Virus record (IMG/VR): IMGVR_UViG_3300045988_132604
DNA from: a virus
DNA: 41,286 bases
Reading direction: 5' to 3' (one strand)
Shown: in pieces, positions 175 through 41,136 of the stretch
Layout of the letters: each line of letters starts with the position of its first letter
Position numbering within the stretch: position 1 is the stretch's first letter
Notes under the pieces: generated by a model
Seen by the model: only the letters and a program-made list of their open reading frames with translations
Database searches by the model: none
What the model was told of the DNA's origin: nothing
Translations under genes and position numbers: made by a program

Positions 175-1317
175 TTAATCGCCGCCGTTGCCGTGCGCTT
201 TGGGGCTGGCAACTTTACGGCAACTTTTTTCAAACGCGCCCTGTAACTGCTCTGCACTGTATTTTTCCTTCTGCGCCGAAAGGTGTGAATAAATTTCAAG
301 CGTAATTTTTGCATTGGCGTGGCCTAAATATCTTTGGGCGGAAAGCACGTCTACGCCCGCATTATATAGTACACTGGCGTAATTGTGCCGAAGGTAATGC
401 GGGGTGATAACCGATACCATCCGCCCGCCCTTTTCAATCGCGTCAATCTCCGGCGCGATATCGTACAGCCGCGCCATTAAGTCGTCCCATAGGCGGTATC
501 GCGTCGCATTGCGGTGATATGACCCTGTGGGGGATGGCACTACATACGACTGCGGCAGACCGCGCACGGGGCGCAGCTTGTCCGCCAGTTCGCGCGGCAT
601 GGGGATTGTCCGCACGGACTTATCCGTTTTGGGTGCATCTATCTCGCCCGTCTTGCCCGCCGCCTGCTGCTCAACGCGGATTGTCCCCGCCTTGAAGTCA
701 ATGTGCCGCCATTGCAGACCACACGCCTCACCGTACCGCATGCCCGTGTAGTACAGCAGGGCAAGCATTAGCGTGCCGTCCTCGTCTATCAGGCGCAGCA
801 CCGCATCCGTCTCCGCGTCCGTCAACGCCCTGCGCGTCTCCTTTGGCTTTGACGGGATTGTAAGCCCGACAGTGATGTCACGCGGGATAAGCCCCTGACT
901 ATATGCCCGCTGAAATACCCCACGCAGGATTGTAGATATGTTACCTATTATGGCCGCGCACGTGTCGGCCTTGGCGTTCAGCAGCCGTTGCAAGTCCTCC
1001 GTGGTGATTGCCGTAAGCCGCCGCCCCGCCAACGCGGGGAAGATATGCTTATATAACGCGGTGCGGTATGACATCTGCGCGGATACGCCTATATGCGGCT
1101 GCTTGTACACCTCGTACCATGTCAGTGCGTATCGGTCAAAAAGTACCCCCTCGGGCACCGCGTTTGCGCCCGTGACGTACTTTTCACGCGCCGCCGCCTT
1201 AGCCGCTTCAAGCTCTTTTTTCGTGCGGCCTGATACATACTTGACTATGCTTTTCCCGCTTGCGTCCGTGCCGACTGTGATTTTTGCACGGTAGCGCCCA
1301 TCTTTTTGCTTCGCCAT
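175..1317 (-). CDS. int: Tyrosine recombinase (phage integrase)
   Basis: 380-aa ORF. N-terminal SAM-like region. Catalytic-domain motifs RYGEACGLQWRHID, HYLRHNYAS and LGHANAKITLEIYSH (R..HxxR..Y signature). Sits at the genome end next to the attP-like non-coding region. Confidence 0.95.
   Translation of the reverse strand: MAKQKDGRYRAKITVGTDASGKSIVKYVSGRTKKELEAAKAAAREKYVTGANAVPEGVLFDRYALTWYEVYKQPHIGVSAQMSYRTALYKHIFPALAGRRLTAITTEDLQRLLNAKADTCAAIIGNISTILRGVFQRAYSQGLIPRDITVGLTIPSKPKETRRALTDAETDAVLRLIDEDGTLMLALLYYTGMRYGEACGLQWRHIDFKAGTIRVEQQAAGKTGEIDAPKTDKSVRTIPMPRELADKLRPVRGLPQSYVVPSPTGSYHRNATRYRLWDDLMARLYDIAPEIDAIEKGGRMVSVITPHYLRHNYASVLYNAGVDVLSAQRYLGHANAKITLEIYSHLSAQKEKYSAEQLQGAFEKSCRKVASPKAHGNGGD
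208..227. repeat. Tandem GGCAACTTT x2 (11-bp phase) inside the int 3' end; a matching pair lies at 41156..41175
   Basis: ggcaactttacggcaacttt here versus ggcaactttgcggcaacttt at 41156-41175 (1 mismatch). The pairs are about 220 bp apart on the circular map and flank the non-coding attP region. Candidate arm-type recombinase or RDF binding sites. Confidence 0.45.
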
Positions 1318-34576: not shown

Positions 34577-36100
34577 ATGAAAAAACCCTATTTAGGCTGT
34601 ATCCCGTCCCTCGCTGACCCGAGGGACTATTCATTATCCGTAGTTGCGGACGTGGAATACCCTGCAAAGTTTAATGTAGCCGACGTGCCTATATACGACC
34701 AGGGCAATATAGGGCGGTGCGTAATGGAGGCGCTTAGGAGCGCACCCCACGCCGCTACGGGCGTAGAGCCGGGCGCAACGTTTGGATATGGCTACTGGCG
34801 CAGCCATTCCAGAACGGGCATGATTATAGACGAGGCGTGTAACGGCTTTGTCCGTGACGGTATACCGCCCCGCAGCGTTGACAGCGCAGACCTTGAAATG
34901 CCTGAAGCTAAATACTATGCCGAAAATCATAAAGAACGCCTGCTTAAAGCCGCAGAGCCGTATAAGGGCTGGCAGTGGGCGCGTACCAACAGCATAAACG
35001 AAATCAAGGCCGTGCTGTGGAATAGCCGGAACAATCCCGGCTCGCGCTGTATCGTTGGCCTGCCGTATGTCAGGATACATAACGGCAGATGGAGGGTGGA
35101 CGGCCCAGCAGGCGGCCATCATGCTATGGCCATTGTTGGCTGGGACGATGAAATGAGAAGCATGGACGGTGCAAAGGGCGGCTTTATTCTGCGCAACTCT
35201 TGGGGTACTAAGGGAGGCTTTGGCATACCCGAGGGCGGCTATCTCTGGTGCGCATATGACGATATCCTGTGCGAGCGCTCTGTCTATGCCTTGATTCCTC
35301 CGGCTAAAGCAGAGCCAAAGCCCGAGCCTGCTCCCACTCCCGAGCCTGCGCCCGCACCCAAGGATGACGATGTGGTAGTTGTGCGTACGCTTCGCCTTAC
35401 AAGCCCGTACATGCGCGGTGATGATGTTAAGCACGCGCAGGAAAGGCTTATTGCACACGGGTACAATATCGCCGCTGACGGAGTTTTCGGCTCTGCCACA
35501 TATAAGGCCGTGCGCGAGTTTCAGGCGGCGAAGAAGCTGACGATTGACGGTATAGTGGGTAAAAACACCTTGGCCGAATTGGACAGGGAGCCCACTGTTA
35601 TTCCTCCCGCACCTGATGTGGATAAGGAACTGCGAGCCGACTTTATAGCGTACCTGTATGCACAGCTTGGCAGCATCTACTGCTGGGGCGGCAACGGAGA
35701 AGGCGCAAGCGACTCCCTGATAGACATTATGGAGAACAGCAGCGGCAATAAGCGCAGGGCCAAGGCGTTTCTGTCTAAACAGAAGAAGGCTGGCGTACAG
35801 AACGTCAAAATGTACGACTGCTCCGGCTTAATATCCCGTTGGCTACAGGATCATGGGCTTGCCAAGGCCAAGCGCAACTGTGACCATCTTTGGGCGATGT
35901 GCAAGGCAATAGCCAAGTCTGAGCTTCAGCCCTGCGACCTGCTGTTCCGTGGTACAGGCGACAAAAAAACGCATGTCGGCGTATATATGGGCAACGGCAT
36001 GGTCATCGAGGCAAGAGGCAGAGATTATGGCGTGGTGATCAGGCCCATAGATGCAACGAAGGGTTATTGGCAGTATTTCGGGCGGCTAAAAATGAACTAA
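34577..36100 (+). CDS. Three-domain endolysin: papain-like C1 peptidase, PG_binding_1, NlpC/P60
   Basis: C1 triad context QGNIGRCV, HHAMAIVGWDD and LRNSWG. PG-binding repeat GDDVKHAQERLIAHGY..DGVFGSATYKAVREFQ. NlpC/P60 YDCSGLISRW and HVGVYMGNG. Confidence 0.85.
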   Translation: MKKPYLGCIPSLADPRDYSLSVVADVEYPAKFNVADVPIYDQGNIGRCVMEALRSAPHAATGVEPGATFGYGYWRSHSRTGMIIDEACNGFVRDGIPPRSVDSADLEMPEAKYYAENHKERLLKAAEPYKGWQWARTNSINEIKAVLWNSRNNPGSRCIVGLPYVRIHNGRWRVDGPAGGHHAMAIVGWDDEMRSMDGAKGGFILRNSWGTKGGFGIPEGGYLWCAYDDILCERSVYALIPPAKAEPKPEPAPTPEPAPAPKDDDVVVVRTLRLTSPYMRGDDVKHAQERLIAHGYNIAADGVFGSATYKAVREFQAAKKLTIDGIVGKNTLAELDREPTVIPPAPDVDKELRADFIAYLYAQLGSIYCWGGNGEGASDSLIDIMENSSGNKRRAKAFLSKQKKAGVQNVKMYDCSGLISRWLQDHGLAKAKRNCDHLWAMCKAIAKSELQPCDLLFRGTGDKKTHVGVYMGNGMVIEARGRDYGVVIRPIDATKGYWQYFGRLKMN

Positions 36101-36782: not shown

Positions 36783-37022
36783 GTGGTGGACAAAAATATT
36801 TTGCAGACCCTATCCCGTGCGGAGTGGGAAGGGATAATCTATCAGCGGATTTTCTGTGAGCGCGACCGCTGGCTTGTGGCGCGTCACCTGCTGGATGGTG
36901 TGCCGTATGACCGCTTGACGGCGGAGTATCAGGCGCGGTACACCGATGCGCCGCTGGAGTATGACCAAATCCGCCGCCGATACAAGGCAGCGGAGAGAAC
37001 CCTTATAAAATATGCCCCCTGA
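36783..37022 (+). CDS. Small HTH-like protein (sigma region-4-like); start unresolved
   Basis: GTG start with no RBS. RWLVARHLLDGVPYDRLTAEY is region-4-like. An ATG at 36766 with a good GGAGGTGA RBS lies one frame off, joined across the A5 run at 36792-36796. Confidence 0.45.
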   Translation: MVDKNILQTLSRAEWEGIIYQRIFCERDRWLVARHLLDGVPYDRLTAEYQARYTDAPLEYDQIRRRYKAAERTLIKYAP

Positions 37023-37047: not shown

Positions 37048-37076
37048 TTGACATATGCTTGATGTTGTGGTATTTT
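37048..37076 (+). promoter_or_regulatory. Promoter of the repeat-mimic RNA cassette
   Basis: TTGACA (37048-37053), 17-nt spacer ending in TGg, TATTTT (37071-37076). The predicted start lies about at the first base of repeat unit R1. Confidence 0.6.
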
Positions 37077-37082
37077 AATAAT

Positions 37083-37173
37083 GTCATCCGGCAACGGATG
37101 AGGATTGAAATATTTAATTTTTCGTTTTTGCGTCTGGGACGCATGCCACCCGCTTGCGGGTGTGGATTGAAAC
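37083..37173 (+). CRISPR. Mini-array-like unit: two diverged type I-C-like CRISPR repeat mimics flanking a 33-nt spacer-like segment
   Basis: R1 37083-37111 gtcatccggcaacggatgaggattgaaat. R2 37145-37173 gccacccgcttgcgggtgtggattgaaac. Each has a 6-bp stem and tetraloop, then exactly 11 nt ending GGATTGAAAY. 20/29 identical, with a compensatory stem change. The spacer-like segment is atttaatttttcgtttttgcgtctgggacgcat. No cas genes in the window. Confidence 0.55.
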
Positions 37174-37182
37174 ATTATTTAT

Positions 37183-37206
37183 CTTTGGTGGGGTTTCAAA
37201 CCAAAG
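37183..37206 (+). ncRNA. Hairpin in the 3' part of the cassette RNA
   Basis: ctttggt / accaaag 7-bp stem. The loop ggggtttcaa contains GTTTCAA, which is complementary to the TTGAAAC of the R2 handle. Confidence 0.4.
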
Positions 37207-37238
37207 AAAAAGATGCACCGCAGTGTATCTTTTTTTTC
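37207..37238. terminator. Bidirectional intrinsic terminator shared by the cassette (+) and the 37341 gene (-)
   Basis: aaaa agatgcac cgca gtgtatct tttttttt. 8-bp stem (one G:U), with an A-run 5' and a T-run 3'. Confidence 0.8.
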
Positions 37239-37340
37239 TTTCCCCCGGTTATTTCACCCAACCCCAAAGATTTATCCAGTTTTTGGGACAAATTATCCGG
37301 TACATATAGGGCGGTATTGCCGCCCCTTGTCCTCTGCGCC

Positions 37341-37625
37341 TTAGCGGTTCAGCGTCTCGGCAGCGTGCTTGGCTACTGCCGCGTCATAGGCGGATTCGCA
37401 ATCCTCGTAGCTGTCAAAGTCTATATTCAGCTCATAGCACAGCGCCTCGACAAGATTCGGCTCCCACTCGGCATCGTCGTCTATGGCCGCTATAAGCTCA
37501 TCTGCCGTAGCCGTGCGGACTTCGCTGCGGGGGAAGTCTTTTTCCGCTACCCGCCACATGGGGATAAAATCTTCGCCATACTGCTCGCGGGTCTCGGTGC
37601 CTTCAATCGCTTTGTAAACCTTCAT
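37341..37625 (-). CDS. Small highly acidic protein (94 aa)
   Basis: GGAG RBS. About 24 D/E versus 9 K/R by my count. Driven by its own copy of the duplicated operator-bearing promoter. Confidence 0.75.
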   Translation of the reverse strand: MKVYKAIEGTETREQYGEDFIPMWRVAEKDFPRSEVRTATADELIAAIDDDAEWEPNLVEALCYELNIDFDSYEDCESAYDAAVAKHAAETLNR

Positions 37626-37626
37626 T

Positions 37627-37723
37627 TTTTTAACTCCCTTCGGGGCTTTGGCCCCTTGCTTTATCGTGGCTTTATTATACCATAGGTATATACCTACGTC
37701 AAGGGGTTTTTGCAGATTTTTTG
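37627..37723 (-). promoter_or_regulatory. Duplicated promoter-operator-leader element, copy A
   Basis: On the minus strand: TTGACG (37702-37697), a 17-nt spacer containing the perfect palindrome TAGGTATATACCTA (37683-37696), TATAAT (37679-37674), a leader hairpin ggggc-caaa-gcccc and the RBS. Nearly identical to 38972-39066. Confidence 0.8.
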
Positions 37724-37888
37724 ATTTTTTATGTCGGCGCGTATCAGGCCCTTGATATATCCTTGCGTGCTGGGCACATCGGCAAGACGGGCGAGGATGT
37801 CGCCATCTGTGCCGATGTTAAGCTTAAGGTATATGCCCTTGGTGCTTTTTTTGTCGTAGCGGGCTTGCCGCTCAAATTTTTTTTTCAT
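37694..37888 (-). CDS. Ribbon-helix-helix (Arc/CopG-like) protein, candidate operon autoregulator
   Basis: Start at MKKKFERQARYDKKSTKGIYLKLNIGTDGDILARLADVPSTQGYIKGLIRADI (beta-strand then two helices). ATGA overlap with the upstream gene. The last about 10 codons run into promoter copy A. Confidence 0.6.
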   Translation of the reverse strand: MKKKFERQARYDKKSTKGIYLKLNIGTDGDILARLADVPSTQGYIKGLIRADIKNQKICKNPLT

Positions 37889-38529
37889 TTTTTCATCCAC
37901 TCCACAAGCTTGCTGTACGATGGCCAGGGCTCCCACTCTGCTGCCATGTCCCTGATAGCCTCGGCATAGTCCTCGCTGCGCAAAATCTTTTCCATCGCCC
38001 TGCGTCCTGCGGCGCATTTATCTATATCGACACCCCGCGTAAATTCTTCCGCAGTAAAAAATGCAGCTGCTCGGGGATATTTAGATTCTATCTCTGCCAT
38101 TTTCACGGTAGGCTCTTTCGGCTTTTCACACCCGCAATGGTCTACAAATAGCCAATGCCTGATTGCGGCCTTGTAGTCGTCCCATGCTTTCCCTGCCGCA
38201 CGCACCTCGCTCATGCCCTCTATAGCCGCGCTCGATACCTTTAACGCGGCTATTTCGGCTTTTTCCCGTAGCAAATCATTATGTACATTGACTACTATGG
38301 TATCGGTCTCGCTGTCATAGCTATCGGGCTTGGCTCTGCATGACCAGTAATCAGCGTCGCGCTCTGCGCAGCTCATGCGCACCGGCACAAAATCTCCGCT
38401 TGCGCACATCCTACCCCAGCAATCGGGGCAGAATGTGCGGCCTATCAATTCGCGCATGTGGTCGCGGTCGTCCATCGTGCAATCCACCGTAGTGGTATGC
38501 CCACAGGCATATTCCATTTCGTATTTCAT
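37885..38529 (-). CDS. Hypothetical protein with an N-terminal CGH...CPDC zinc-ribbon-like motif
   Basis: Start at MKYEMEYACGHTTTVD (AAGGAG RBS). The N-terminus is paralogous to that of the upstream gene. Confidence 0.7.
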   Translation of the reverse strand: MKYEMEYACGHTTTVDCTMDDRDHMRELIGRTFCPDCWGRMCASGDFVPVRMSCAERDADYWSCRAKPDSYDSETDTIVVNVHNDLLREKAEIAALKVSSAAIEGMSEVRAAGKAWDDYKAAIRHWLFVDHCGCEKPKEPTVKMAEIESKYPRAAAFFTAEEFTRGVDIDKCAAGRRAMEKILRSEDYAEAIRDMAAEWEPWPSYSKLVEWMKK

Positions 38530-38548
38530 GGCGTTCTCCTTTTCTTTT

Positions 38549-38968
38549 TTATTTTGTTGCATTATAAGTGTTGATTACCTCGCGGCCCCACTCGCCGCGC
38601 AATGACCTGTCACGATTATCTATCCAAAATTTTGCCGTGGTATAGGTCTGTATAATCCATGCGATGCAGCGCATTGCATCCTCGTTGGGGCCAAGAGCCA
38701 TTATATCGTCTATTTTTTCTTTGCGGATTGCGTTTGCCCATGCGACCTGCTTCGGGGTTCCGTTCAGCTCGGGCCACTGCTTTTCCTTGCTTTCCTGCGC
38801 CGCCCGCGCGTCAATCGCCTCGCGCTCTGCCTGCTTGCGAGCCTTGTAGCATTCGGGGCATTCGCCGTGCGTCTCATACCAGCTGATTTTGCGCTCGCGC
38901 TCTTTGCTGGATCCAAACAGCTCTATCGTTGCAGAGTGTCCGCAGGAAAATGTTACATCGTACTTCAT
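38549..38968 (-). CDS. Hypothetical protein with an N-terminal CGH...CPEC zinc-ribbon-like motif
   Basis: Start at MKYDVTFSCGHSATIELFG...CPECY (ATG at 38968, GGAG RBS inside duplicated leader copy B). The track ORF is over-extended to 39085. Confidence 0.7.
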   Translation of the reverse strand: MKYDVTFSCGHSATIELFGSSKERERKISWYETHGECPECYKARKQAEREAIDARAAQESKEKQWPELNGTPKQVAWANAIRKEKIDDIMALGPNEDAMRCIAWIIQTYTTAKFWIDNRDRSLRGEWGREVINTYNATK

Positions 38969-38971
38969 AAT

Positions 38972-39066
38972 TTTTAACTCCCTTCGGGCTTGTTGCCCTT
39001 GCTTTATCGTGGCTTTATTATACCATAGGTATATACCTACGTCAAGGGGTTTTTGCAGATTTTTTG
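38972..39066 (-). promoter_or_regulatory. Duplicated promoter-operator-leader element, copy B
   Basis: TTGACG (39045-39040), the palindrome TAGGTATATACCTA (39026-39039), TATAAT (39022-39017) and the leader hairpin gggc-aacaa-gccc. Confidence 0.8.
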
Positions 39067-39106: not shown

Positions 39107-39135
39107 CCCCGCGCCCTGATCGCGGGGCTTTTTTT
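39107..39135 (+). terminator. Plus-oriented intrinsic terminator insulating the downstream cargo cluster
   Basis: ccccgcg ccctgat cgcgggg c ttttttt. Confidence 0.65.
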
Positions 39136-39168
39136 ATGCGAAAATCAAGGCATAAGGAGGCGAAAAAA

Positions 39169-39600
39169 ATGTGGAATCCCAACCCCTTTTTTGGCGGCTA
39201 TCAGCAGCCCCAGCAGTACCAGCAGCGCACCGAAATTGCCCAAGTCAATGGCGAGGGCGGAGCGAAGGCGTACAGCCTTGCGCCCAATAGCAGCATCCTG
39301 CTGCTGGATACCACCGCGCCCATAGTCTGGCACAAGTGTACCGACAGCGCGGGGTATCCTACACTAACCCCGTACACCATCACACCGTATCAGCCTGCAC
39401 CGCCCGTGGACATAAATGACCTTGCGGCGAGAATATCAAAATTGGAGGATAAATTAAATGACGAATCCCATACTGCAAGCAATGAAGGCTGGAGGCCAGC
39501 AGACCCCGCAAATATCCCCACAGCTAATCGCCCAGGCGAAAAGCATGATGGGAATGCCCGCGCAAATGCAGCAGGTAATGCGGATGCTCGGCGGGCGTGA
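39169..39600 (+). CDS. Hypothetical protein with a Q-rich N-terminus; 3' end doubtful
   Basis: Start at MWNPNPFFGGYQQPQQYQQ (AAGGAGG RBS). The last about 45 codons overlap the next gene and look like off-frame Ala/Arg/Gly-rich sequence. Confidence 0.55.
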   Translation: MWNPNPFFGGYQQPQQYQQRTEIAQVNGEGGAKAYSLAPNSSILLLDTTAPIVWHKCTDSAGYPTLTPYTITPYQPAPPVDINDLAARISKLEDKLNDESHTASNEGWRPADPANIPTANRPGEKHDGNARANAAGNADARRA

Positions 39601-39676
39601 CCCCCGGCAGATGTTTTACAGCGTGTGCCAGCAAAAAGGCATAGACCCTGAAAGCATCTTGTCCCAAATCCGATAA
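39458..39676 (+). CDS. Small Q/M-rich hypothetical protein (72 aa)
   Basis: GGAGG RBS 9 nt upstream. Confidence 0.6.
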   Translation: MTNPILQAMKAGGQQTPQISPQLIAQAKSMMGMPAQMQQVMRMLGGRDPRQMFYSVCQQKGIDPESILSQIR

Positions 39677-39722
39677 ATCACGCGCGATTTATATACCAAA
39701 AAAATATGAAGGAGAAAAGACA

Positions 39723-40346
39723 ATGGATAATGTACCCTCTTTGGCGGATATCGCCGCCGTAACGGACAAAAACGACGGCCTTGGCGGCAGCATGGGCGGA
39801 GGTTTTTGGATTTTTGCGTTGATTATACTTTTTGCCATGATGGGCAACGGCTTTGGCGGCTGGGGCAATCGCGGCAACGGTGACTACGGCCAGTACGCGA
39901 CCGCAGCGACGCAGCAGGAAATCCTTTTCGGCCAGCATTTTGGCCAGCTTAATGACCGCTTGACCAACATCGGCAACGGCATATGCAGCCTTGGCTACGA
40001 TATGCAGGGCAATATCGGCCAGCTTGGGAAAGAAATGGCGCTGGCACAGAATGGCACGAATATGATCGTTATGCAGTCCGCGAACGGCATACAGTCCCAG
40101 ATGGCGGACTGCTGCTGCGCCGTGCAGCGCGGCATGGATGCCATCAACGCCAATATCGACGCAAAATTTGCGGCACTCGAAAAGGCGCAGCTTGAGCAGC
40201 GCATAGCCCAGCTTGAGCAGGCTAATAACCAGCTTTTTGTCCGCGAGCAGCTGACGGGCGTGGTACGCTACCCCAACGGCTACACCTATAACGCCGGAAA
40301 TAGCCCGTTTTGCGGCAACGGCTGTGGCAGCCCCTGCTGCTGCTAA
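39723..40346 (+). CDS. Membrane protein with Gly-rich flanks, a coiled coil and a Cys-rich C-terminus
   Basis: TM helix GGGFWIFALIILFAMMGNGFGGWGNRGNG. Also ADCCCAVQRG, LEQRIAQLEQANNQL and the C-terminal CGNGCGSPCCC. Confidence 0.65.
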   Translation: MDNVPSLADIAAVTDKNDGLGGSMGGGFWIFALIILFAMMGNGFGGWGNRGNGDYGQYATAATQQEILFGQHFGQLNDRLTNIGNGICSLGYDMQGNIGQLGKEMALAQNGTNMIVMQSANGIQSQMADCCCAVQRGMDAINANIDAKFAALEKAQLEQRIAQLEQANNQLFVREQLTGVVRYPNGYTYNAGNSPFCGNGCGSPCCC

Positions 40347-40379
40347 CGCACGACACCATCCGGCATTGCCGTGACTATC

Positions 40380-40398
40380 GGGGCGGCTTGACCGCCCC
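40380..40398 (+). promoter_or_regulatory. Hairpin between cargo genes
   Basis: ggggcgg cttga ccgcccc followed by ttgatt, a weak U-tract. Confidence 0.35.
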
Positions 40399-40420
40399 TT
40401 GATTATGAAAGGAGAAAATT

Positions 40421-40831
40421 ATGGCTTGTAAAAACATATGCCAGCTTTGCCCCCGCCTGATTATATCCCAGTCCGTGACATTTGTGGCGGGTACTGGGCT
40501 TATCATCAATCTGCCCGCAGGAGTATACGCCAACGGCGAAAAATATTGCATCGTAGTGGCGCAGAGCATACCGGACACTACCACCATATCCGCGCCCGTA
40601 TATATCACCATCGGCACAGGCACGGCACAGTATCCCCTGATAAACCGCTGCTGCGCACAGGTGACCGCGTGCAGCATGCGCAAGCGCACCAAATACAGCA
40701 CCGTGGTATCCACCACCCCCACGGGCGGGACTTTTAAGCTGCTCGGCAACCCGCCTTGTGCACCCAATAACGACCTTACGGGGCTGACCGGCGGCACGGT
40801 TGCCACCGTGGCGGAGGCGGCTAAAAAATGA
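40421..40831 (+). CDS. Cys-rich, beta-rich small protein (136 aa)
   Basis: AAAGGAG RBS. N-terminal CKNICQLC, internal CC..C, and Thr/Gly/Val-rich stretches. Confidence 0.65.
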   Translation: MACKNICQLCPRLIISQSVTFVAGTGLIINLPAGVYANGEKYCIVVAQSIPDTTTISAPVYITIGTGTAQYPLINRCCAQVTACSMRKRTKYSTVVSTTPTGGTFKLLGNPPCAPNNDLTGLTGGTVATVAEAAKK

Positions 40832-41136
40832 AGCTAATTAATGACCTGTCCGACCAGATTTGCGAAGAAATCGCAGACGCTGAAAAGTATGCTAAGTGGG
40901 CGCTTGCGGTCAAGGACGATATGCCGACCGTAGCGCAGACCCTGTACACCATATCGGGGCAGGAGCTGACCCACGCATCCATGCTGCACGACCTTGTAGC
41001 CCGCGCTATATCGGACTACAAGGCGAAGCATGGCGACCCTCCCGCCGATATGCTGACGCTGTACAAATATTTGCACGGCAAGCAGATAGACAAGACGGAA
41101 CGTGTAAAAAGGTATCAGGAAATGTACAAGGCGTAA
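40828..41136 (+). CDS. Four-helix-bundle (ferritin-like / Coat F-like) protein
   Basis: ATGA overlap. EEIADAEKYAKWA....GQELTHASMLHDLV pattern (E..DA..Y...E..H). Confidence 0.5.
   Translation: MKLINDLSDQICEEIADAEKYAKWALAVKDDMPTVAQTLYTISGQELTHASMLHDLVARAISDYKAKHGDPPADMLTLYKYLHGKQIDKTERVKRYQEMYKA

Follow-up and report, generated by a model that had tools for sequence, protein, structure and literature searches.

A candidate acr-aca-type anti-defence locus beside type I-C CRISPR-repeat mimics in a temperate gut phage

Introduction

Several described systems resemble the locus analysed here, a group of four minus-strand genes (A to D) in the virus record IMGVR_UViG_3300045988_132604 of IMG/VR, whose full length of 41,286 nucleotides (nt) we call the window. 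The ribbon-helix-helix (RHH) type anti-CRISPR-associated (Aca) protein Aca14 represses its own and a neighbouring operon and occurs most often with the anti-CRISPR (Acr) protein AcrIF23, and the same 2026 preprint already covers RHH-type Aca regulators and distant AcrIF23 homologues (bioRxiv 10.64898/2026.07.27.740549); the acr-aca architecture, too, is already known. Novel folds were reported for both AcrIF23, a blocker of the Cas2/3 nuclease, and AcrIE7. AcrIE7 binds the single-stranded DNA (ssDNA) of the R-loop and protects it from Cas3; its residues K6 and R49 are required both for ssDNA binding and for protection of the R-loop strand, and the assay in which it shielded the displaced strand from Cas3 cleavage employed type I-C Cascade (PMC12002350). 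Finally, for an AcrIC5 homologue of a gut bacterium and the repeat-mimic RNA adjacent to it, inhibition of type I-C has been shown by experiment (PMC10651486).

Using computational approaches throughout, we arrive at the view that the A-D locus is probably an acr-aca-type counter-defence locus directed against CRISPR-Cas of type I, and probably of type I-C. A candidate anti-defence function had been proposed for this region from the letters of the sequence, and that proposal is now supported by the homology of A, the exchange of A and B for AcrIC5 in the same slot, a fusion of D, the covariation of regulators with operators and the linkage to CRISPR-repeat mimics.

Results

The four open reading frames (ORFs) are present where the original prediction had placed them, and their products range from 64 to 214 amino acids (aa):

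38549-38968, minus strand: gene A, 139 aa, candidate anti-CRISPR
37885-38529, minus strand: gene B, 214 aa
37694-37888, minus strand: gene C, 64 aa, proposed Aca-like autorepressor
37341-37625, minus strand: gene D, 94 aa, candidate anti-defence protein by association

In a program-made ORF list A, B and C are longer than in the original prediction, whose starts are the ones with a ribosome-binding site upstream (GGGAG or AAGGAG); those of A, B and D also coincide with the starts of homologues. The translational coupling of B and C by an ATGA overlap is likewise seen in the sequence. The description of the products as small acidic proteins applies to D, for which the same count of 24 D/E versus 9 K/R was obtained (pI 4.15, net charge -15), and not to A, which is neutral (pI 7.6), or C, which is basic (pI 10.0), B being mildly acidic (pI 5.2). 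Similarly, the paralogy proposed for A and B is confined to their N-terminal zinc-ribbon region of about 41 residues (27% identity, pairwise E 1e-5), and the likeness is bridged by a 202-aa zinc-ribbon protein of the sibling phage L001.

Protein A combines an N-terminal zinc ribbon, with the ligands C9, H11, C37 and C40 (C-x-H...C-x-x-C), and a helical module of about 55-75 residues with the pattern L-x-G-[ST]-x-K-Q-x-x-W-A-x-x-I-R ... A-K-[FYW]-W-I-D-N-R, which in A takes the form G-T-x-K-Q-V-x-W-A-x-x-I-R ... W-I-D-N-R. Pfam, NCBIfam and PADLOC hold no family for A, and PHROG 16123, of unknown function, matches it at 1.1e-27. When A alone was compared with the PDB (177,635 sequences), the best match was AcrIF23 (7fia, 7.5e-5), followed weakly by AcrIE7. 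A profile of its close homologues gave AcrIF23 at 1.1e-6 and AcrIE7 at 7.7e-4, with the next match at 0.32 (ribosomal protein L33), and a profile of 34 homologues from many phyla gave AcrIF23 at 6.9e-9 and AcrIE7 at 6.8e-3, with the next at 0.02 (release factor 2). Residues ~48-123 of A are collinear with residues 48-116 of AcrIF23 (alignment to ~121), and residues 68-121 align with AcrIE7 residues 2-52, placing the AcrIE7 residues K6 and R49 opposite K73, nearly invariant in the A family, and R119, which is invariant. Through this module the locus holds a homologue of validated Acr proteins. The homology covers the one module and not the whole protein; full-length similarity to the 106-aa AcrIE7 bundle is absent, as only AcrIE7 2-52 aligns. 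The original prediction had recognised no function in any of the products, a statement that no longer holds for A and that stands for B and D, for which no homologue of known function was found.

Members of the A family also occur in the phages RcapMu, BigBern1, phiCs5676-1 and Gilgamesh and on plasmids, and are always annotated as hypothetical. The idea that A and B are the 2 halves of longer homologues was discarded, since BLASTP shows only an A-like part in these 362-389-aa proteins and no B-like domain. Such longer relatives, or else a protein carrying the C-terminal domain of B, open helicase modules placed after the endolysin gene, of which we observed examples in Clostridia and Selenomonas (pro)phages at L041, L043, L067, L119 (phiCs5676-1), L122 and L123, with 1 or 2 PAPS reductase/DUF3440 genes each; the first proteins of these operons finish in an acidic tail of the L-I-D-D type.

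The original prediction of near-consensus promoters with a perfect 14-bp palindrome in the spacer was borne out by 2 promoters, P1 before A-B-C and P2 before D, so that D does have its own promoter copy and leader:

39017-39045, minus strand: promoter P1, with -35 box TTGACG at 39045-39040, palindrome at 39039-39026 and extended -10 box TGGTATAAT ending at 39017
37674-37702, minus strand: promoter P2, a copy of P1, with -35 box at 37702-37697, palindrome at 37696-37683 and -10 box at 37679-37674
38969-39016 and 37626-37673, minus strand: conserved 5' leader GATAAAGCAAGGGGCnAAAGCCCCGAAGGGAGTTAAAAATG, containing the GGGAG ribosome-binding site and a small GGGC/GCCC hairpin

Both promoters read TTGACG-17-TATAAT, agreeing with the consensus at 11 of 12 positions, and both have a TG-extended -10 box. 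The palindrome TAGGTATATACCTA, which fills the promoter spacer and abuts the -35 box, occurs in exactly 2 copies in the 41 kb, compared with 0.06 expected from shuffles. The promoter-plus-leader regions of P1 and P2 form a 144-nt direct repeat, and gene C and P2 are interlocked, the last codons of C encoding the -35 box of P2 and its stop codon TAG doubling as the opening triplet of the P2 palindrome. Between C and P2 no terminator was found, and D would for this reason also receive read-through from P1.

Across the 10 cassettes that were aligned the leader hardly varies, regardless of the regulator and operator; it was seen in the window, L001, L004-L007, L014 and L116-L118. A role in mRNA stability or translation is conceivable, as is one as a recombination joint for cassette exchange. 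Its hairpin was considered as a strong RNA structure and rejected as such, its folding energy being ordinary (z = -0.4 to -0.6).

The 64-aa protein C had been predicted to be an RHH protein. Its residue pattern, with a strand I-Y-L-K-L-N and the helices D-G-D-I-L-A-R-L and Q-G-Y-I-K-G-L-I-R-A-D-I, fits this fold, as does its position in the operon; profile methods (Pfam, NCBIfam, PDB, hhalign) do not confirm it, and hhalign gives weak values, E 0.015 with RHH59, a positional analogue, and E 0.16 with CopG. We regard the fold of C as probably RHH from these sequence features. The C family comprises 860 representative clusters, is not in Pfam and corresponds in PHROGs to a family of unknown function. 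Its positional analogues in L004/L118 and L005 give near-threshold RHH matches, those of the 59-aa protein to ParG/RHH_1 falling just below threshold.

Comparison of the related loci revealed 4 regulator/operator pairs, listed with the regulator, the loci, the operator and its place in the promoter:

64-aa C: window and L006-L015; TAGGTATATACCTA; in the spacer
59-aa RHH: L002-L004 and L116-L118; ATACTG-N4-CAGTAT, with constant arms and the centre GGTG, GACA or GAGC; in the spacer
61-aa RHH-like: L005; ACTAT-N6-ATAGT; in the spacer
159-aa helix-turn-helix (HTH): L001; TTTGTCA-N10-TGACAAA; over the -35 box

Both promoter boxes, -35 and -10, and the leader are constant across all four pairs. The palindrome TAGGTATATACCTA was present, in 2-3 copies, in 11 of the 11 loci encoding the 64-aa protein at >=90% identity and in none of the other loci then fetched. 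Nothing else available speaks as strongly as this covariation for each operon's last gene encoding a protein that binds the repeat in its own and the neighbouring promoter, the behaviour described for Aca proteins and in particular for Aca14, and it suggests that C would bind TAGGTATATACCTA. The locus has a small, basic proposed regulator encoded by the last gene and an inverted repeat in both promoters, as acr-aca loci do.

The sibling loci also show what can take the place of A and B. The promoter of L006 and L007, which agrees with that of the window in palindrome and leader as well, drives a 60-aa AcrIC5 homologue and a 99-aa gene, which are followed by a 64-aa regulator 91% identical to C (tblastn), again with an ATGA overlap, and then by P2 and D. 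The AcrIC5 assignment is firm, with 7.9e-22 against Pfam PF22147 (score 77.6; cut-off 27 bits) and 7.7e-8 over the full length against the solved AcrIC5 structure 7yhr. In L005 (P0024), D is joined in frame to AcrIC5 and a 61-aa RHH-like gene comes next. A validated Acr family is therefore found under the same promoter and regulator in L006 and L007 and fused to D in L005. Locus L001 (MT835524) has the same flanks and the same D as the window and three promoter copies, with different genes in between: a 227-aa gene, the gene of the 202-aa zinc-ribbon protein and that of the 159-aa protein, which carries a C-terminal HTH (Pfam HTH_3, 1.9e-7). The A-B-C unit itself was found at 89-100% identity in 8 IMG/VR contigs, in which the region past P2 varies and holds D, a 61-aa acidic protein, an 89-aa or 83-aa gene, or HTH-like proteins of 120-154 aa. 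Taken together, the sequences give the picture of an accessory hot spot at which cassettes are exchanged between phages.

A further element linked to the locus lies outside the A-D coordinates and is convergent with it, namely a cassette of type I-C CRISPR-repeat mimics:

37048-37237, plus strand: convergent type I-C CRISPR-repeat mimic cassette
37048-37076, plus strand: promoter of the cassette
37083-37111, plus strand: repeat 1
37145-37173, plus strand: repeat 2
~37212-37237, plus strand: terminator

Each of the 2 diverged repeats has a 6-7-bp stem and a tetraloop, followed by GGAUUGAAA, and the stem of repeat 2 differs in a compensatory manner. The 33-nt 'spacer' between the repeats is conserved together with the rest of the cassette in different phage lineages (L009, L012, L116), which argues that it is not an ordinary acquired spacer. 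Single-repeat forms, which look like repeat-to-repeat deletions, were observed in L008 and L004. Among the loci examined, the cassette was seen only beside A-B, both in the lineage of the window (L008, L009, L012) and in an unrelated lineage with a P22-type portal (L002-L004, L116, L117); the AcrIC5-bearing variants, the HTH-bearing variants and some A-B loci are without it. As the loci are not independent samples, the association of the cassette with A-B is suggestive and not statistical.

Proteins B and D belong to narrow families. Pfam, NCBIfam and PADLOC gave no family for B, C or D, and PHROGs gave only families of unknown function. In B an N-terminal zinc ribbon of the A type is followed by a middle part rich in beta structure and by a C-terminal domain that is helical and has the motif KYPRAAAF...GEDY..AI, and B stands beside A in every A-bearing locus seen. 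The AlphaFold2 models of both proteins are of moderate confidence, with predicted local distance difference test (pLDDT) values of 76.2 for B and 76.6 for D. That D might be a DNA mimic, as originally suggested, was not borne out by its predicted structure, which resembles no known mimic or solved fold; with no match in fold or sequence, what speaks for this idea is the strong negative charge. A match of D to PDB 8pjs (5.7e-4, with no stretch passing by itself) looks like a composition artefact and was set aside. A 218-aa protein of L006 (6325-6981, plus strand) contains a D paralogue as its C-terminal half (~43% identity) and resembles the 89-aa gene product in its N-terminal part, indicating that D is a reusable domain and not just a stand-alone protein. 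The N-terminus of D, E-Q-Y-G-E-D-F-I-P-M-W (37572-37604, minus strand), resembles the C-terminal motif E-K-Y-G-E-D-F-V-V-M of the AcrIC5 homologue (L006 5340-5384), a short likeness that may be a coincidence. B and D are thus anti-defence candidates by association, that is, through the operator-controlled promoters, the pairing of B with A and the fusion of D with AcrIC5.

The window is the near-complete genome of a temperate, siphovirus-like gut phage. Besides a capsid of the HK97 type and a portal of the SPP1 type, it encodes an RNase_T exonuclease and has a gene resembling those of HTH repressors. Its sole relative in the phage collection is MT835524 (L001), a human-faecal phage without annotation, and a scan of GTDB found no near-identical prophage, returning only distant homologues (<=57% identity) from many phyla. 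The A-D locus forms an accessory region past the lysis genes, and the surrounding features are the following:

175-1317, minus strand: tyrosine integrase
34577-36100: NlpC/P60 endolysin
36783-37022: conserved 79-aa ORF, flanking the locus on one side
37252-37314, minus strand: gene remnant made up of the final 21 codons of an 89-aa gene (tblastn, 90% identity to residues 69-89 of the L008 gene)
37309-37329, minus strand: G+C-rich hairpin without a clear T-run, directly past the D stop codon
39107-39127, plus strand: G+C-rich hairpin with a T-run (terminator-like), directly upstream of P1 and before the plus-strand gene at 39136
39136-41136, plus strand: conserved gene cluster, the other flank, divergent from the locus

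The hairpin at 39107-39127, whose sequence also lies upstream of P1 in L006, L014 and L001, probably insulates the locus from the divergent plus-strand gene. The cluster at 39136-41136 has genes of 154, 72, 207, 136 and 102 aa; the 207-aa product is Gly/Cys-rich, membrane-associated by appearance and has weak ZorA-like coiled-coil matches, and the 102-aa product has a weak rubrerythrin-like match. Because this cluster is paired with the locus also in unrelated phage backbones (L004, L006), the 2 may move together. On the other side, the 89-aa gene comes after D in the siblings L008, L009, L010, L012 and L015 and is mostly deleted in the window, beside the repeat cassette.

Discussion

The arrangement described above suggests how the locus would work. 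The strong sigma-70 promoters P1 and P2, sharing one 14-bp operator, would transcribe A-B-C and D, respectively, until accumulating C, small, basic and probably an RHH dimer, binds the palindrome in both promoters and shuts them off, which would give a burst of early expression and then repression, the pattern known from Aca proteins. Protein A would most likely interfere with the Cas3 step of type I interference, here of type I-C, and B and D would be further inhibitor candidates; D, being strongly acidic and found fused to the acidic Cascade inhibitor AcrIC5, would probably act on the I-C complex.

A number of results weigh against this interpretation. The loop of AcrIF23 that binds Cas2/3 (17-28) lies outside the shared module, at a place where A has its zinc ribbon, and the AcrIF23 and AcrIE7 fragments give no mutual BLASTP alignment, the link between them running through the profile only. 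The two-domain architecture of A was found in 106 loci across phyla in a scan of GTDB representative genomes, with Sphingomonas, Streptomyces, Leucobacter, Desulfobacterales, Clostridia, Segatella and Pseudomonas among the taxa, and the longer relatives of A (362-389 aa) head operons with SNF2 helicase, PAPS reductase/DUF3440 and ParB genes, so the module may be a general DNA- or protein-binding one that is not specific to anti-CRISPRs. For B, Foldseek found no fold match to its AlphaFold2 model in the PDB; for D, nothing better than E = 2 was obtained there, and in BFVD the model matches only its own orthologue and one uncharacterised protein. Searches of Pfam with C and 62 relatives and of NCBIfam with C returned no RHH family, 2 profile searches of the PDB with the C family returned no RHH protein, and beside distant C homologues no further known Acr family was found, the neighbouring genes including DarA_C, methylase and lysis genes. 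Our confidence in the anti-CRISPR interpretation is kept moderate mainly because the A module is not unique to verified anti-CRISPRs.

The breadth of the A family is also what gives weight to a different role, in which the genes are accessory helpers in DNA metabolism or modification, A and B being zinc-ribbon binders of DNA or ssDNA and C a local repressor, or in which A and B give DNA general protection, against restriction enzymes or nucleases for instance. The long A homologues stand directly upstream of the SNF2 helicase, PAPS reductase/DUF3440 and ParB genes, in operons placed just past the endolysin in prophages of Clostridia and Selenomonas and in phage phiCs5676-1; a protein with the C-terminal domain of B fills the same operon-head position in another phage; the family spans many phyla and extends to plasmids; and the conserved AcrIE7 residues serve ssDNA binding, a generic activity. 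We nevertheless judge this role improbable, as the short A-B form never adjoins helicase or PAPS-reductase genes, its slot is interchangeable with AcrIC5 and it travels with I-C repeat mimics. It also overlaps with anti-defence in the broad sense, since helicase and PAPS-reductase operons have been placed under Aca control as putative anti-defence operons (bioRxiv 10.64898/2026.07.27.740549).

Two further explanations start from the small regulator and the temperate lifestyle. The phage is temperate, with genes for an integrase and an HTH repressor-like protein, and one of its operons unites a strong promoter, an operator of palindromic form and a small autoregulator resembling RHH proteins. 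This recalls the immI region of phage P22, with Pant-arc-ant and the RHH repressors Arc and Mnt. In such an antirepressor module A and B would inactivate the CI-type repressor of the same or a competing prophage and C would act like Arc, and the A homologue of RcapMu does adjoin repressor genes. This explanation is very unlikely in our estimation: A, B and D show no similarity to Ant, KilA, Bro or other antirepressors in Pfam, PHROGs and NCBIfam, the homology that exists is to anti-CRISPRs, and neither the AcrIC5 swap and fusion nor the linkage to CRISPR-repeat mimics would be expected of an antirepressor module. RHH proteins are also common as antitoxins, and the locus lies at the prophage end past the lysis genes, a typical accessory 'moron' site, which would suit cargo for prophage defence, superinfection exclusion or a toxin-antitoxin system, with C as antitoxin or regulator and A, B or D as effectors protecting the lysogen. 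To this we can assign hardly any probability, given that A-D match no PADLOC defence model and no toxin domain in Pfam, that the RHH-like gene is the last of its operon and not the first, that D is acidic and has its own promoter, and that a verified anti-CRISPR family occupies the same slot in sibling phages.

Beyond the counter-defence interpretation itself, the observations could be joined in a wider proposal, which we put forward tentatively and think rather unlikely to be right as a whole. According to it, A, B and D would be three new Acr families forming, with the repeat-mimic RNA, a multi-pronged anti-I-C island; A would be the first studied member of a multi-phylum zinc-ribbon superfamily that includes AcrIF23 and AcrIE7 and blocks the Cas3 step by a shared K/R ssDNA module, an ancient, broad-spectrum type I scaffold of phages and plasmids; and the promoter-leader with exchangeable operator and regulator would be a general plug-in counter-defence cassette of gut phages.

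To our knowledge, type I-C inhibitors are few, and this phage group has so far yielded no characterised one. The locus offers 3 inhibitor candidates (139, 214 and 94 aa), a regulator family that Pfam lacks, a proposed regulator/operator pair ready for use and an operator code that is clear. It ties AcrIF23 and AcrIE7, two Acr proteins of 'novel fold', to a single module of wide distribution in which the residues that AcrIE7 needs are conserved, and in this way offers a concrete hypothesis, open to test, on the mode of action of a large family of phage and plasmid proteins that are so far uncharacterised. The promoter-leader unit with its swapped operators and regulators, in turn, provides a handle for mining counter-defence genes in gut viromes.

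Set beside the known systems, the locus shares with P22 immI the strong promoter with palindromic operator, an autorepressor (here a proposed one, probably of the RHH type) in the same operon and the temperate phage, and it differs in lacking similarity to Ant, in having the regulator last and not first and in carrying cargo related to anti-CRISPRs. Like the Aca14 acr-aca operons, it has a small regulator, probably of the RHH type, as the last gene, an inverted repeat in its own and the neighbouring promoter and AcrIF23-type genes. Aca14, however, comes from Proteobacteria (Pasteurella), where it was defined, and has a repeat that overlaps the -10 box, whereas the palindrome here lies in the spacer and abuts the -35 box; the comparison of Aca14 (WP_005725436.1) with C is one of layout and not of sequence, and profiles do not detect the RHH fold in C.

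At the protein level, A has the collinear helical module of AcrIF23 (7fia), with the motifs G-T-x-x-Q-x-x-W-A-x-x-I-R and A-K-F-W-I-x-N-R, and differs from this seven-helix protein in that its loop 17-28 is outside the alignment and a Cys/His zinc ribbon is present, AcrIF23 moreover acting on type I-F and the context here being type I-C. AcrIE7 (9n3x, 9la6) aligns by its N-terminal half, with the essential K6/R49 corresponding to K73/R119 of A; the match is weaker (7.7e-4 to 6.8e-3), and AcrIE7, of which half is covered, forms a seven-helix bundle that stands alone and has no zinc ribbon. In the AcrIC5-RacrIC1 prophage locus of Bifidobacterium pseudocatenulatum (PMC10651486), acrIC5 shares its transcript with the mimic, which is located 11 nt downstream, whereas the mimic of the window is convergent, has its own promoter and two diverged repeats, and the window has no AcrIC5 gene. 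The 2 loci are nevertheless alike in their setting, a gut Gram-positive prophage with an I-C repeat mimic beside Acr or candidate Acr genes, and AcrIC5-family genes fill the A/B slot in the sibling phages of the window.

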